From positions 128,001-192,000 of the forward strand of contig CAVSHT010000011.1 of assembly GCA_963727895.1 (NCBI GenBank): a stretch of DNA of 64,000 nt, read 5' to 3'. The position numbers are program-made. Origin of the DNA: an uncultured Methanosarcinaceae archaeon (GTDB lineage: Archaea > Halobacteriota > Methanosarcinia > Methanosarcinales > Methanosarcinaceae). Position 1 is the first letter of the stretch. Each line of letters begins with the position of its first letter. Below are positions 6,001 to 57,000 of this stretch, in pieces.

Positions 6001-9000
6001 AAGTTCCTTCCTCATGTCCTGAAGCCTGCGAATTACTTCCCTTGCATATCCTTCAGCTTCAAGTTCAGGAGTCAGGTTTGCATCCACATAAACAAGACCA
6101 GCCTCGGATTCTGCACTTGCTGTTCCTTCTGGCAATGTTTCTTTGAAATTAGCCATTTCAGGAGTTACTGTAACCTTTGTTCCATCTGCAAGGGAGATTT
6201 CAAATTCACCAGCTTCGGAAAAGGCTTTTTTCAGAACAAAACCGTCAACATTTTTCAGGGCAGAGATGACTTTTCCTGCATCCTTCTTGAAAACAGGACC
6301 TATTTTGCCCGGATCAGGAATTACTTCAAGCCCTAGCTCATCCCAGCTCTCAGAGATACGCTGTCAAGACAATTGCTTTGGAATTGGTCTGGTCCATAAG
6401 GACTGAACGCAATCTCTCTACAGCCTTTGACTGCATCCTCACTTTCAGGGGAGACAATTATTCGTGATACAGGCCATCTGAGCTTTCTTCCTGCTTTCTG
6501 ACGGGCGTTTGAGGCAGCTTCCACGATAGAACGTGCAGTATTCATGGCTGCTTCGAGATCGGGATCAAGGTAGGCTTCATTTACCTTTGGCCAGTCACAC
6601 ATATGGACCGATTCTTTTGCATTCGAGTCTACGTTTCGAATCAGGTTCTGGTACATTTCTTCAGCCAGGTAAGGCATGAAAGGAGAGATCAATTTTGTAA
6701 GAGTTACGTAAACCTCATAAAGCACGCAGTAAGCTGCAAGTTTGTCAGGATCGTCGGCTTCGGTCCAGGTTCTTGGACGAATGAGCTGAATATACCAGCG
6801 AGAGAGGTCTTCAAGCGTAAATTCCAGAATTTCACGCACGGCTTTATGCAGGAAGTATCCTTTCATTGCTTCGTCTACGGTTCTTGACAACAGACTGAAC
6901 TCTTGAGAGAATCCATTTGTCTTCTTCCCTAAGCGCGTCTTTTACGGAATCAAGACTAACCTTCAGAGGATCAAACTTATCAAGCGCCATGTAGGGAAGC
7001 GGGAACCTGAAAACGTTCCACAAGATATTAATTGAACGATGAACGGTTTCCACTTCTTCCTGGTTATACTTAAGGTCATCCCAGGGTGCACTTGAGGAGA
7101 GCACATAGGCACGAAGTGTGTCAGCTCCATATTTATTGATAATATCAATTGGAGAAACAACGTTTCCAAGGCTCTTGGACATTTTCTTTCCGCCAGCATC
7201 AAGAGTAAAGCCGTGCATGAGTACATTCTTATACGGAGCTCGTCCAAAGCCCACCATGCTTGCTCCAAGCTGTGAATAAAACCAGCCACGTGTCTGGTCA
7301 TGTCCTTCAGTGATAAAATCAGCAGGCCACCATTCATCGAATTGTTCCTTAGTCTGTGGGAATTTGAGGGTAGCCCAGGAAGCTACAGCCGAATCAAACC
7401 AGACATCAAAAACGTCTTCAACACGCTTTTTCTCTCCACCACATTCACAGGGAATAGTTATTTTGTCTACATAGGGTCTGTGAAGCTCTACATCGCAATC
7501 CACTCCGGCTTTTTCTAGGAGTTCGGCTTTAGTTCCTATTACCTCAAGCTTTCCACACTTCTTACACTTCCAGACAGGAATTGGCATTCCCCAATAACGC
7601 TGCCTGGAAATACACCAGTCTCTGGCGCCTTCGACCCATGTTCTAAATCTAGCTGAACCTGCCCAGTCAGGGTACCAGTTCACGGCATCGATTGCCTCAA
7701 GCATTTTGTCTTTTATCTCGGTAACCTTGAGGAACCATTGTTCAGTTGCCAGATAGATTATAGGAGTTTTGCAGCGCCAGCAGTGTCCATACCTGTGAGT
7801 TACAGTTCCTTCTGCAAGCAACCTATCGCGTTTCTTCAGGTCTTCTATTACAATCGGATTTGCCTCTCTGACGTTTTTGCCTGCATATTCCCCAGCTTCT
7901 TCAGAATAGGAACCATTAGGACCAACAGGACAGAGAATCGGAAGCTTATACTTCACTCCAACATTAAAGTCATCCATACCATGACCTGGGGCAATGTGTA
8001 CACAACCTGTGTTTTCTGCAGTTACGTAATCGGCAAGATAAACTCCATGCTTTATCTCGTTCTGCACAGGCACAAGATCCCCTACAGGACTTTCGTACTC
8101 CAGTTTTGTGAGCTCTTCTCCGGGCATTGTCTCAAGCACTTCATAGTCAACATACCTGCCCTGTTTAAGGACATTCTTGATCAGACCTGTAGCAGCAATT
8201 AATATTTCTTCAGATCCATCCTTCCTGATTGCCCTGAATTTTGAGTACTCAAAACTTTGATGTACGGCTACAGCCACGTTTGCGGGAATTGTCCAGGGTG
8301 TTGTTGTCCATATGACTATGAAAGTATTTTCCTCACCTTTAATCTTGAATTTCACATAGATTGAAGGATCGGTACGCTCGGCATATTCAACCTCAGAATC
8401 TGCAATTGCAGTCTCACAGCGGGGGCACCAGTTGACTGAGCGTTTCCCAACTTCCAGAAGATTTTTTTCACTGGCTTGTTTGAGAGTCCACCAGGCAGCT
8501 TCAATGTAGTCATCTTTTAAGGTCATGTAGGGGTCTTCCCATTGCATCCAGACCCCAAGCTTTTGGAACTGTTCAGTCATGTCCTGCTTTTGGTTAATGG
8601 CAAATTCTTTACATTTTTCAATAAAATTCTCTACCCCAAAGCTCTCAATATCTTTTTTGTTCTTGAAACCAAGAACACCTTCAACTTTTACTTCTATTGG
8701 CAAACCATGCATATCCCAGCCAGGACGCTCTAGAATATTGCGATTATTCATGGAGTAATAGCGGAGAATGGAATCTTTGATTACCTTGTTCCAGGCAGTC
8801 CCCAGATGAATATGTCCAGTGGTATAAGGAGGTCCATCAACAAAAAAAAGCCTTTTTCCGGTCTTGCGGTTCTCCCGGGTTTTTCGATAAGCATCGTTAT
8901 CTTCCCAGAGCTGCGTTACTTTTTTTTCAATTTGCTCTGCGTTATATTTGGCAGTGATTTCTTTTATCATAGAAGATCCTCAAATGTGACATCTTTTATA

Positions 9001-54000: not shown

Positions 54001-57000
54001 GAGTCAGTGGCGGAATTAACTCTTCAAACTCTTGAATTTCTTTTTTTCGTTCTATTTCGTTTTGGCATATAACCTTCTAGAGAAACGAAAGATTTTTGGA
54101 GGAGCCTTTTAGTTAAATATATAGGGACTTGCGCGCGGGCGCTTTCTTCGTTTTGACCTTTTTAGTGGCAACTGATACGTGCTGTATTTTTATAATATTT
54201 CGTTTCAGGCATTTTTTGTTTCGTTTTATTTCGTTAGTCTAGACCGACCAGTCTATATAATGTCCAGTTTAGTGTACTAGACTGACTGGTCTAGATAGAC
54301 TGATCTACATAATACGTGACTAGCATACTAGACCAATTGATACAGGTAGACTTGTCTACATAACGCTTAGTTTAGTGTACTAGACCAACTGGTCTAGACC
54401 GATTGGTCTAGGTGTTTGAAGTATATATTTAAAAATTAAAGTATATACTATGATAGTTTATATAATTTTATGGATAAAAAGACATATCGTTATATAGTTT
54501 GAAGAACATATATAGATATGTAAAGCATTTATGCAATGAAAAACGAAAAGCAGGACGTTAAAAACGGTATCGGTTTCTGCTCCGATACGCCCATACAAAA
54601 GGAGGCATTGGGCGATGCCTCCAACTCCCTTTATGCTAAATGCACGTTTACTCTTTGGCGTGCTCCAAAAATCACCTTGCAGGGTCTTTAAACATTCTCC
54701 CTGCAAAAAGCGAACAGTCAATCCATTCCCTTTTGTTGCCTCGGGCTGTTCGCAATATAATTATTATCAAGAACGGCAAGCCAAGATCCAACTACACAGC
54801 CTGTTTAGTCAGGCCACACGTCACCACTTCGGTGAGCCACTGTTGCAATGTTACCCACATATTTTTTGCGGCTGCCGTTCCTTAAAAACGGTTTCTCTTT
54901 TCTGTAAATAGTCCATTTTTAAAAACTAGATTATTTTAATATGGAGTTCCAATACTTAACAAGGCTTACTATATAATTGCTTTCTTTATTTCTTTTAAAT
55001 ATGTTAGTTTAAAAGAAGTCAGGTTTGATTATCTTCTATCATATAGGGGTCTCCCTTATGAAATATTCTAGAGTGAAAACGTGGTCAGTGCAAATTCTTA
55101 TTATGCAATTACCCAATAAGTGCTAGCAAAATTACTAACCGATGAATACTGTAAACTCCGATATCGGCTGTTTATATTATGGAATTTTAATCATACGTCT
55201 GATAAAGTATCCATTTTTAGAAGCAGACATTCACCTGCTCGAAAGAGAAACGGCTCTTTCTCATGTCAATCAGTTTATTCAGTAAATACTGTACTCAATT
55301 TAAGCTTTGTTATGATATTAATAGAAAAATCATTTTTTTAGTTTTTTACTGTATGAATTTGTATTAGTTATTTGCACTATTTTTATTATTTACTTTTTAT
55401 ATAGTACATAAATCCAAGAATTTAAGATTAGAACTTGAAGAAAAAGATTATCGTAAAAAAAGTCAAAATACGCTGTATATACACTTATACACATGGAAAA
55501 CAAGCAGTAAGGTATTAAATTGAAACTCTAATTTCAATTTTTTTTCATTAGCCAATTAATTCTCAAATTTTCTGAAATATATACCTATAGCTTACATAAC
55601 AATTAGAGAGTTTGGAAGTTAACTATAGTTATTTATTATGAGAACCTCTATTTCTTCATTAACTGCCCCAGATGCAATAGTTCCAGTCACAAAAAGAATG
55701 GTATAGTTGGTGGGCGTCAACGGTACAAATGCTCTGATTGTGGATATAACTATACAGTAGAGCTAAAATCAACTGCTTTTTCCGCTTTTGTAAAAAGACA
55801 GGCTTTACAACTCTATCTTGAAGGATTGGGCTTTCGCTCAATAGGAAGAGTTTTAGGGGTGAGTCATGTTTCTGTCCAAAGATGGATAAAGAAATTTGGT
55901 CAAGAGTGAGAGAACCTAAAAAGTGAAAGTGAGATATCTATTGTTGAAATGGATGAAATGCACACTTACATCGGTAACAAAAAAAATATTGCTGGATCTG
56001 GATTGCTGTTGATAGAGTTGGGAAAAAGTTCATCAACTGCTCTTTTGGTAGCAGAGGAACAGAAACTGGAAAACTACTCTGAAAAAAATTGAAGAAAAAA
56101 GAGATTGGAGAAGTGATGACCGATCACTGGAGGGCATATGCAGAGTTTCTTTCTGAAACGATTAATACTCAATCAAAAGCAGAAACGTATACTGTTGAAG
56201 GATATAACAGCATATTGAGGCACTTTTTGGCAAGATTGAGAAGAAAGACAAAGTGTTATATAAAAAGTCTTGAAATGCTAAAGTACTCGGTTATTCTATT
56301 AATGAAATACAGAAATAAAGAGCTAAATATATTTAGTTAACAATTATTAAGCATCATATATTTCTAAATTAGATACACTTTCTTATATTCTCTATATCTT
56401 ATGATAACAATTGGTTATATAATAATTTAATAAGATAATAATGTACAAATATAAATACAGTTGGAATATTATATGAAAAAGACGCATCAGTAAATGGACA
56501 TTATCTCTTGAGTAAAACGTCAGAATAAATAGAATAAAGATCTTTTTAAGACAAATTATTGTTCTCGTCCTGAAGAAACAAAGAATGTAATAAGGACGTA
56601 TAACCAGCATTATGAGTGGGTACAGTAGATAAAGAGCAAAAGAGTTTTAATTTAAAATAAAACTCAATTATAAACAATTTTATAGTATAAATGATATTAT
56701 TCAACTGCTCCAATTGCAGATGACGACCTATTTTTACTTGGCTTTGTCCTTGAGATCTTCATGTAGCAAGTTTTTATTTAATGATATATTTAAATAAGAA
56801 TCAAACTCTTTAAGACTTATGAAATTACCTCGATGTAGAGGCAACCTCTGTTACTCATAAGGTAGTAAGTTTCATTCACATATAATGTTAGAAGTTTCTA
56901 ATCGCTTGACATGATAAACTTCTCAAAAACAATTTCACCAACGGCCTTAAATAATAGTGATTTTTCATGGGTAGTGCGAAAATTTATATTCTCCCATCTA

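Follow-up and report, generated by a model that had tools for sequence, protein, structure and literature searches.

The window analysed here is a stretch of 64,000 nucleotides from an uncultured Methanosarcinaceae archaeon (GCA_963727895.1, contig CAVSHT010000011.1; this genome is G000 below). It contains a 46,079-bp element at 8965-55043 which, as the initial annotation described, lies at the isoleucyl-tRNA synthetase gene ileS, has the 7-bp core TATCATA at both ends and carries an integrase and a primase-polymerase. The features, in window positions, are as follows.

5791-8970, minus: ileS, the target gene (Pfam PF00133/PF08264/PF19302), in three open reading frames (ORFs) through extra bases
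8965-8971: attL, the left core, covering the base preceding the ileS ATG, the ATG and codon 2 (occupied versus empty comparison)
8972-9023: left element arm, the spacer of the divergent ileS and integrase start codons (alignment of seven occupied sites)
9024-10112, plus: intact tyrosine integrase (PF00589), 362 aa, with a C-terminal four-Cys zinc ribbon
11054-12178, plus: primase-polymerase, Prim-Pol domain (PF09250, E = 1e-6; phrog_1156)
12148-13917, plus: P-loop replication protein related to pME2001 Rep (Atlas PF27228 lead; tblastn)
13944-14751, minus: ParB-like gene fragments, paralogous to 52246-53990
16980-18749, minus: Schlafen group 3 helicase-domain protein, a probable defence gene (PF09848, E = 3e-89)
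19474-20265, minus: CARF protein with a transmembrane part, a type III effector (PADLOC CARF8--CARF_TM)
20522-28454, minus: type III-D effector genes cas7 (671 aa), csx19, cas7 (475 aa), csx10/cas5, cas7 (229 aa) and cas10
28471-29676, minus: CARF and PD-D/ExK nuclease, Card1-like (domain search, PADLOC)
29687-30370, minus: cas6b, adjoining the reverse transcriptase (domain search, PADLOC)
30492-31586, minus: stand-alone CRISPR-associated reverse transcriptase (RT), 364 aa, FSDD motif (domain search, PADLOC)
31846-32596, minus: 10 type B repeats at the trailer end of the array, with strand-biased spacers and their own leader missing
32597-41522, minus: 122 identical type A repeats (Rfam CRISPR-DR7), with 23 nt common to type B
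41523-41635, minus: type A leader, conserved beside the A arrays of G043, G074, G006 and G050
41636-50350, minus: type I-B operon cas8b-cas7-cas5-cas3-cas6-cas1-cas2-cas4 (domain search, PADLOC)
51306-53990, no single strand: small ORFs and ParB-like genes, common to the C9 region at about 156-165 kb
55011-55036: right element arm, the inverted counterpart of 8972-8997, kept in six species
55037-55043: attR, the right core, a direct repeat of attL
55044-55200, minus: displaced native ileS upstream region (alignment with 18 empty sites)

Element ends and the ileS start codon

The TATCATA heptamer by itself occurs at chance level (11 copies in the 64-kb window), so we placed the boundaries by comparison with relatives. 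Of 22 other ileS loci of the genus, 18 have a 5' end of ileS that runs into DNA matching position 55043 onward, which bears out the earlier claim that the pre-ileS DNA of relatives resumes beyond the right core; three of the other four run into the integrase and one stops at a contig end. The element has direct-repeat att cores at both ends and a precise empty site in relatives, with a single attL, a single attR and no internal core with arms. Sequence comparison supports the reading that the CRISPR locus is cargo of an element integrated site-specifically at the start codon of ileS.

A conserved inverted repeat of both ends around the core, missing from the initial annotation, is new here. 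Its left half is 8972-8997, and in an alignment of element ends all six elements have, once their ends are joined, a dyad about the core; the 18 empty sites have little such symmetry (read there one base off register). The joined attP pattern of an excised circle had no match in metagenome contigs or in viral contigs, and contigs drop rare forms. A looser arm pattern had no match in viral contigs and two in metagenome contigs, both attL, one of them duplicating an element already counted.

Insertion also leaves the native ileS promoter and Shine-Dalgarno (SD) sequence 46 kb from ileS, a separation that the initial annotation had not described; the displaced region has an SD at about 55050-55056 and a conserved TATA-like box at about 55171-55178. 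The element would therefore have to drive the essential ileS, presumably from its left arm. On the ileS side this arm has an SD-like GAGGA (8981-8977, minus) and a TATA-like box (9016-9009, minus), and on the integrase side a TATA-like box (8994-9001, plus) 30 nt before the integrase ATG; we infer promoter roles from these motifs. G017, where a presumed attR proved not to be one, retains only the left end, in which the integrase-side TATA is lost and the ileS-side box and SD are kept. The extra bases in ileS itself, near 6360, 6431 and 6879, are absent from public-run contigs, and its frameshifts are assembly errors.

The integrase has intact catalytic residues (R130, E133, K157, H224, R227, W249 and Y259 in alignment), with the R-H-R-Y tetrad present beside one att, and attL lies 53 nt upstream of the unbroken gene. 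Suicidal integration of the SSV/pTN3 kind, in which att would lie inside a split gene, was accordingly rejected, as was a pNOB8-type integrase (R...YxxR...Y expected, H224xxR227 here). An SNJ2-type enzyme would, by the available text of PMC5861418, need Gly/Ala and Ala/Val for Glu/Asp-I and His/Trp-III, where E133 and W249 stand here. The initial annotation had called the integrase rare (2 of 58 genus genomes at 1e-60); our recount gave homologues in 27 of 58 genomes at that threshold and in 39 of 58 at 1e-30, and the integrase belongs to a genus-wide family with several site-specific clades. Rep matches Methanothermobacter plasmid records by tblastn (24%, E = 1e-10) and 21 of 58 genomes have a homologue, in many cases within a few kb of a paralogous integrase.

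CRISPR-Cas cargo and a fused array

Two CRISPR types are present. The III-D module has a Cas10 with the palm GGDD (and one extra base at about 27514), csx10, csx19 and several Cas7 proteins (PADLOC), and the I-B gene set is complete (cas8b, cas7b, cas5b, cas3, cas6b, cas1, cas2 and cas4), with cas2, at about 42400-42695, recognized by eye only. The sole Cas1 match of the genome and all four RAMP matches fall within the element, and a generic scan found no further array elsewhere in the 84%-complete assembly, in agreement with the earlier statement that the element holds every cas gene and the only array. This one cas1 is that of I-B, 11 kb from the RT, which adjoins a cas6 and has no cas1 of its own. 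G000 has no CRISPR at alaS; in G043 and G074 the RT/III block adjoins that gene and the I-B operon is at another place. Homologues of the integrase, Prim-Pol, Rep or ParB-like genes were not found in the 20-kb flanks of the I-B operons of G074, G004, G051 and G047.

The 132 repeats of the array (122 type A, 10 type B) run on with spacers all of 32-44 nt and no gap, and the seamless fusion first described is upheld. So are the separate arrays of two relatives, where A and B precede the same RT as distinct arrays, with 3.16 kb between them in G043 and 4.19 kb in G074. Two more genomes, G022 and G049, share the B+A fusion (3 of 59 overall), so CRISPR modules have been reshuffled within the genus; our literature search found no report of hybrid arrays, which says little.

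Type B spacers have a purine fraction of 0.64 (n = 10) versus 0.51 for the unique type A spacers (n = 116; P = 0.001), and that of the junction spacer is 0.82. Feeding of the A array by the RT was rejected, no 20-spacer bin having a strand bias (0.48-0.54), as was an apparent orphan B leader on C4, a chance match within a coding region. A search with 7,955 nt of the array against 50,697 phage records gave just seven weak matches (E = 0.02-0.7), and one of its own genome and the relatives' loci gave only partial matches of 20-21 nt.

The initial annotation also held that the I-B genes are fragmented. In the assembly they are: five of the seven genes compared are frameshifted, with 10 frameshifts in 8.3 kb of I-B versus 10 in 43.6 kb elsewhere (Poisson P = 3e-5), next to 132 repeats free of indels (P = 0.003 at the I-B rate). 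This excess would suit a CRISPR block that is dead freight, its I-B part a decaying pseudogene set and the element providing no working immunity, a possibility that we lean against. Eight of the ten frameshifts are +1, like the ileS errors shown to be false by public-run contigs, and because an essential gene carries these same errors, the fragmentation is not readable as decay and may also be assembly error. The I-B DNA is, moreover, 92% identical to the intact G074 operon without a large deletion, the type A repeats are all identical and III-D has just two frameshifts in 6 kb. Two alleles merged at wobble positions found no support as a source of the extra bases (3 of 10 permit at least two equivalent readings).

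The ileS site across the genus

Among 59 genomes of the genus, the ileS junction is occupied in 7, empty in 46 and neither in 6, and never both; a one-mismatch match in G064 in the search for occupied junctions is an empty site. Right ends were mapped at 36.9 kb (G012), 97.3 kb (G046), 19.2 kb (G051) and 6.8 kb (G074), and that of G001, on a separate contig, has the same core and arm as these. Beyond their first 0.6-1.4 kb the ileS elements have little in common: the four others followed end to end (6.8-97 kb) share only the integrase and the ends, and their cargo is unrelated, with no CRISPR seen. CRISPR is therefore one cargo of an ileS hotspot, and ileS, which bears unrelated cargo in six other species, is a recurring landing pad, not a CRISPR-specific vehicle.

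Occupied hosts do not form one clade (8 versus 18 rows, p-AU 9e-7), and the tree of element ends roughly tracks the host ileS tree, a pattern that transfer could produce but that ancient insertion followed by several losses would explain equally well. That likeness of the trees, the missing attP in metagenome and viral contigs and the truncated integrases of G074 and G017 would be expected of an immobile relic, in which one or two ancient ileS insertions were inherited vertically and often lost, with cargo changed by homologous recombination and the G000 element no longer excising. We think this explanation doubtful. The 46 empty sites are precise, sisters of occupied genomes included, and therefore need exact excision or fresh insertion; the integrase, Prim-Pol and Rep of G000 are intact; and the ends of G012, G046 and G017 are 91.5-93.7% alike, closer than their ileS genes (88.8-90.7%), despite unrelated cargo.

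In public sequencing runs, contigs of X1 and X2 depart from the window at 8971 into empty-site sequence, contigs of X3 and X5 cross into the element, and an X5 contig, 98% identical, ends at 8971. In X1, near-identical Rep DNA is present and the integrase is hardly covered. Public reads were placed at 88% likeness, which lets other species contribute, and absent integrase cover in X1 and X2 is thus no proof of absence.

Nature of the element and related systems

We consider it likely that the locus as a whole belongs to a Methanosarcina family of plasmid-like integrative elements, with exchangeable cargo, an ileS promoter swap and a fused array. The tyrosine integrase would recombine the core at the ileS start codon, within the boundaries that the empty sites show, and joining of the ends would yield an attP with imperfect inverted arms of about 26 bp around the core, as seen in sequence. 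Crossover would keep the ileS frame and swap the upstream region, so that the element arm probably supplies the ileS promoter, which would stand back to back with that of the integrase. Integrase and ends would form the conserved chassis, on which the replication module and cargo are exchanged, the G000 cargo (I-B and the RT/III-D block) probably coming from loci found at other chromosomal positions in relatives. Recombination within the 23 nt common to A and B repeats could have fused the arrays and removed the B leader; the B part would then not be expected to grow, and one leader transcript would serve both systems. More tentatively, and at the limit of what we would propose, this may be an excisable genus-wide family that takes over the ileS promoter and ribosome-binding site, ties ileS expression to the integrase promoter, lets the cell survive no excision but an exact one and bears up to 97 kb of cargo, so that here all of the adaptive immunity, with its two CRISPR types, its RT and the array that they share, would be gained or lost as one unit.

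It is improbable that the interval combines two elements, nested or in tandem, with a left integrase-Rep unit and a right ParB-like unit related to C9: the right part (51-55 kb) does resemble the C9 region and run X1 has Rep with hardly any integrase cover, but there is one integrase, one pair of ends and no inner core with arms, and ParB-like paralogues, partly fragments, stand on either side of the cargo with the same orientation, as though a single cluster had been split. A provirus is very improbable. The closest viral integrase is that of the pleomorphic virus GacPV1 (35% over 99%), but no structural PHROG or Pfam family (capsid, packaging, fusion proteins) was found among the scanned non-cas ORFs (17 in the PHROG scan), and of 24 pattern matches to the integrase in viral contigs none was confirmed. 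An assembly artefact, by chimera or collapsed arrays, is just as remote: the assembly has indel errors and no public run has half of the words of 8000-14000, but the same junctions occur in six independent genomes, a like array fusion is present in G022 and G049, and independent contigs span attL.

An integrative conjugative element was rejected, the Pfam scan finding no VirB4/VirD4-type transfer genes among the window ORFs, and replication genes without virion or conjugation genes mark a cryptic integrated element (Krupovic 2019), within the ORFs scanned and the sensitivity of the libraries. CRISPR-Cas cargo and insertion in protein genes are each already known from archaeal elements. The available text of PMC6563490 describes thaumarchaeal NitVie-E4 and NitEve-E4 as cryptic integrated elements with a complete type I-B CRISPR-Cas, likewise without virion or conjugation genes, and places 14 of 68 mapped elements in protein-coding genes, all at 3'-distal regions; here, in contrast, insertion is at the start codon of an essential gene, and the cargo comprises two CRISPR types, an RT and the assembly's only array. 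Within the genus, M. mazei MGE1/MGE2 (for example MetMaz1FA1A3-E1) are alike in tyrosine recombinase, primpol-type replication genes and site-specific att, but they target the 3' part of tRNA-Leu, fuse the primase to an SF3 helicase and have no CRISPR cargo noted in the text available (PMC4779613). For pTN3-like integrases, as far as the excerpted PMC8371274 goes, the host gene is expressed from an element promoter after integration, as we propose for ileS; they target a tRNA gene, however, and their integrase gene is split, whereas ileS encodes a protein and the integrase beside it stays whole. The RT recalls Methanosarcina branch 11, a group II intron-like RT beside cas6 with no partner cas1 (PMC5513706, in part), a likeness by gene neighbourhood; here an integrated element carries the RT, whose array is leaderless, probably through fusion to the I-B array.

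The integrases of GacPV1 and ThalV2 (BK065156, BK065158) match over their full length at 32-35% identity, and that of GacPV1 keeps the C-terminal cysteines in alignment, but both genomes have structural genes, which this element lacks. Bacterial SXT/R391 elements, which are conjugative, integrate at the 5' end of prfC, replacing its upstream signals and N-terminal codons. They share with the present element the 5' end of a translation gene as target; the present insertion does not alter the reading frame, and transfer genes were looked for without success. In the open-access literature we found no report of an archaeal element that targets the start codon of an essential protein-coding gene or of a Methanosarcina ileS hotspot, and supplementary element tables of PMC6563490, PMC4779613 and PMC5513706 could list ileS elements.

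The available part of the review PMC8371274 describes recombination at archaeal sites other than tRNA genes as untested and asks whether dyad symmetry exists there. The six natural end pairs answer this question directly and offer a testable system. Since 46 of the 59 genomes keep the empty site, a genetically tractable methanogen may have in this integrase and its ends a native integration tool that is marker-compatible and whose natural cargo reaches 97 kb.

Elsewhere in G000, the ends of two integrase copies on C4 were searched for and not found. No tRNA adjoined any of the 30 integrase loci examined, consistent with the tRNA-independent targeting first proposed. The C5 element in the AI-2E gene has, as described, a 20-bp direct repeat (367972 and 397294), and its site is empty in all four relatives with a match (five searched). 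On C12 the site lies between genes, about 60 nt before a start codon, and the view that protein genes are the targets therefore stands for ileS and AI-2E and fails for C12.

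Element boundaries and the ileS start

In the assembly under study (G000; 3.67 Mb, 19 contigs, 84% complete), a 46,079-bp element sits at the start of ileS, with the following layout in coordinates of the window (C11:128001-192000).

8965-8971: left core (attL), TATCATA
8970, minus strand: start of ileS
9024, plus strand: start of the 362-aa tyrosine integrase, followed in the left arm by Prim-Pol and then a P-loop protein
Next, in order: Schlafen-helicase protein, CARF-TM gene, type III-D operon, Card1-like gene, cas6
30492-31586: stand-alone CRISPR-associated reverse transcriptase (RT)
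31846-41522: CRISPR array, with type B repeats to 32596 and type A repeats beyond
41636-50350: type I-B operon
Next: ParB-like genes (this identity is a lead only)
55037-55043: right core (attR), TATCATA

The heptamer occurs 11 times in the window and by itself is no evidence for the ends, so the boundaries were decided by comparison with 22 other loci of the genus. The ileS start continues into DNA like that from 55043 onward at 18 of these and into an integrase at three, and one meets a contig edge. Among 59 genus genomes, the exact occupied junction was found in seven (G000, G001, G012, G017, G046, G051 and G074) and the empty junction in 46; none had both, and neither was seen in six (completeness 60-90%). 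A one-mismatch match to the occupied junction in G064 was rejected as that genome's own empty site. These junctions bear out the initial annotation: the insertion at ileS, with its 7-bp core, is real.

Insertion leaves the ileS reading frame intact, as the ATG and codon 2 lie within the core. The arms beside attL and attR are imperfect inverted copies over ~26 bp in all six elements compared, the expected anatomy of a tyrosine-recombinase attP. The native Shine-Dalgarno (SD) sequence and conserved TATA-like box of ileS now lie at 55044-55200. Since ileS is essential and single-copy in the assembly, its transcription must, judging by its sequence context, now come from DNA of the element. In the 53-nt left arm, a TATA-like box stands 46 nt upstream of the ileS ATG and an SD-like motif occupies -11 to -7; on the opposite strand, another TATA-like box stands 30 nt upstream of the integrase ATG. 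From sequence and from the usual spacing of TATA boxes in archaea, these are putative promoter and SD elements for ileS and the integrase. In G017, where only the left end and ~480 nt of the integrase persist, the integrase-side box is lost and the ileS-side box and SD-like motif are kept. Promoter replacement on integration is familiar from SXT at prfC. It is also known for archaeal tRNA targets (PMC8371274). No report of ileS as an integration site was found in searches of the open-access literature.

At the G017 locus (C44, L091), the left end and truncated integrase before ileS are followed by an inverted marC region, and neither an attR nor an empty site was found. Its element arm may have been permanently adopted as the ileS promoter.

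Integrase family and element backbone

The integrase carries R130, E133, K157, H224, R227, W249, Y259 and four C-terminal cysteines, and its named homologues place the assembly in Methanosarcina. It does not fit the definitions of SNJ2-, pNOB8- and SSV-type integrases, and passages of PMC8138268 hold no class that matches it. Although first described as rare (2 of 58 genomes at 1e-60), it has matches in 27 of 58 at that threshold and in 39 at 1e-30, and a protein collection yielded 28 clusters at 72-84% identity. In a 33-member tree, the ileS integrases form a clade of five rows. Another clade, of nine rows, is pyrF-adjacent (all seven checked depart from G000 at C13:104960), and a further one is found beside varied genes. 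The pyrF-adjacent clade is a second site-specific group, downstream of pyrF in nine genomes (L046-L049, L051-L055); G000 has no copy there. Separately, in G064, G065, G067, G068 and G018 (L037, L038, L040, L041, L043), one clade is present in multiple copies per genome that score alike and adjoin unrelated genes, a distribution closer to that of a transposon than to that of an integrase with one site.

Protein genes rather than tRNAs had been proposed as the targets. No tRNA lay within 1.5 kb of the integrase at any of 30 loci, a search that a tRNA fragment would escape, and the ileS and AI-2E sites agree with the proposal, but the C12 site is intergenic. On C5, 20-bp direct repeats bound 29 kb at the 3' end of an AI-2E gene; the C-terminus is restored by the far flank, which runs on to thrS. 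This site is empty in all four relatives with a match. The C12 element does lie before a PAPS-reductase-like gene, ~60 nt upstream rather than within a gene; the site is clearly empty in G001, 32-33-nt matches in G023 and G004 support emptiness, and no empty state was seen in G074. Its integrase is split, and much of its 6 kb is IS1-family copies. No ends could be mapped for the C4 integrase copies.

The P-loop protein is 24% identical to Rep of Methanothermobacter plasmids. No virion or conjugation families were found among the element ORFs scanned. Two direct-repeat pairs (54 and 62 nt) in non-coding parts of the arms (10177-10302 and 54246-54410) are possible origin or protein-binding sites. 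A region of C9 (~156000-180600; L148-L150), adjoining a broken integrase-like ORF, has ParB-like genes and 16121-16934 in common with the element.

A hotspot with changing cargo

Four other elements could be followed to a right end that has this core and arm: those of G012 (36.9 kb), G046 (97.3 kb), G051 (19.2 kb) and G074 (6.8 kb). In G001, such a right end lies on another contig. Past the first 0.6-1.4 kb, the elements share little pairwise, except for some G012/G051 blocks. The window's CRISPR repeat type is absent from those four elements, and a TnpB was their only Cas-family match (120 of 138 ORFs scanned; the other 18 being flanks, integrases and G017). Their contents include a DUF927 replication protein (G012, G051), ABC-3C defence domains (G012), and nitrogenase-like and sulfur-metabolism clusters (G046). 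The ileS site is a hotspot, not a CRISPR vehicle. In its workings the element resembles thaumarchaeal cryptic integrated elements, two with complete I-B systems (PMC6563490), and M. mazei tRNA-Leu elements (PMC4779613).

The 97-kb element (G046:C1:1476462-1573795; L086-L090) is a large metabolic island, with several nitrogenase-like component 1 and NifH-like clusters, cysteine desulfurases, sulfonate-type ABC transporters and other sulfur genes. Related ORFs of 1664 aa in G012 (L082:65-5056) and 1987 aa in G051 (L083:9506-15466) have no Pfam or NCBIfam match.

Mobility is favoured by exact empty sites in sister taxa, by rejection of a single clade of occupied hosts (p-AU 9e-7) and by contigs from public sequencing runs that fork at 8971, into empty-site sequence (X1, X2) or the element (X3, X5); these contigs were matched at 88% likeness and so mix species. 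Against it, the element-end tree roughly parallels the host tree, no transfer genes were found in the element, and no joined ends appeared in any scan of metagenome and viral contigs. Judged by junction comparisons, the occupancy pattern shows past gain and loss of the element.

CRISPR cargo and its integrity

As far as its 84%-complete assembly shows, the only Cas1 match, all four RAMP matches and the only array of G000 lie inside the element, in agreement with the initial annotation. G043 and G074 have their RT/type III block, with two arrays, next to alaS and their I-B operon at another location; no CRISPR was found in the alaS region of G000. G043 matches most of 20339-32557 at 86-89%, and G074 matches 41560-50500 at 92%.

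In the relatives, every B array comes with a leader of its own and with spacers biased towards purines (28/30 in G050 and 10/11 in G043, for instance); the A arrays show no such bias (51/91 in G043). The window lacks the B leader. Its 10 B spacers are still biased (0.64 versus 0.51, p = 0.001), and at 0.82 the spacer at the junction resembles them. These features are what a crossover within the 23 nt shared by A and B repeats would be expected to leave. The fusion may have been a single deletion within a joined locus, the older existence of which is favoured by a cas4 remnant after the RT-side A array of G006, or a crossover between two separate loci. G022, with four B repeats, and G049, with a single degenerate one, have the same B-then-A fusion; G014 mixes two other variants. 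M. mazei leaders are conserved (PMC7465815), and according to a review its I-B and type III arrays are both processed by one Cas6 (PMC7694759). No spacer targets were found in phage records, the genome itself or loci of relatives. Some spacers are duplicated (33698-33919, 34734-34879, 33920/37963, 39222/39731, 35314/37745), as one triplicate and as pairs both adjacent and distant, which suggests that the array has recombined internally.

A Methanosarcina RT adjoining cas6, without cas1, has been described (PMC5513706). A divergent cas1 (38% identity to I-B Cas1) adjoins the B array on the opposite strand at RT loci of G006, G014 and G050 (L121-L130), but not in G043, G074 or the window, and is a candidate partner of the RT. 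The alaS-linked RT-cas6-array unit has Cmr/Csx11 effectors in G074 (L119-L120) and III-D in G043 (L113-L114); effector modules swap under one RT.

As first annotated, the I-B genes are fragmented: five of seven are frameshifted in the assembly. The ileS gene is split too, by extra bases absent from public runs (~6360 and ~6879 in 4/4, 6431 in the 3/3 covering it) and therefore +1 assembly errors. Relative to relatives, there are 10 frameshifts in 43.6 kb outside the element (8/41 genes), two in 6.0 kb of III-D and 10 in 8.3 kb of I-B, eight of them +1. Real decay of I-B is possible because the I-B count is significantly in excess (p 3e-5) and no errors occur in the neighbouring repeats; artefact is the somewhat likelier reading.

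Elsewhere in the window are three copies of a ~750-bp IS1-family element (452-1204, 55611-56344, 60605-61361), which abounds across the genome, and three Gly/Cys-rich tandem repeat tracts (1669-4259, minus strand), which may be genes for short repeated peptides. A small ORF with a Roc/Ras-like GTPase domain lies outside the element at 61344-61889.
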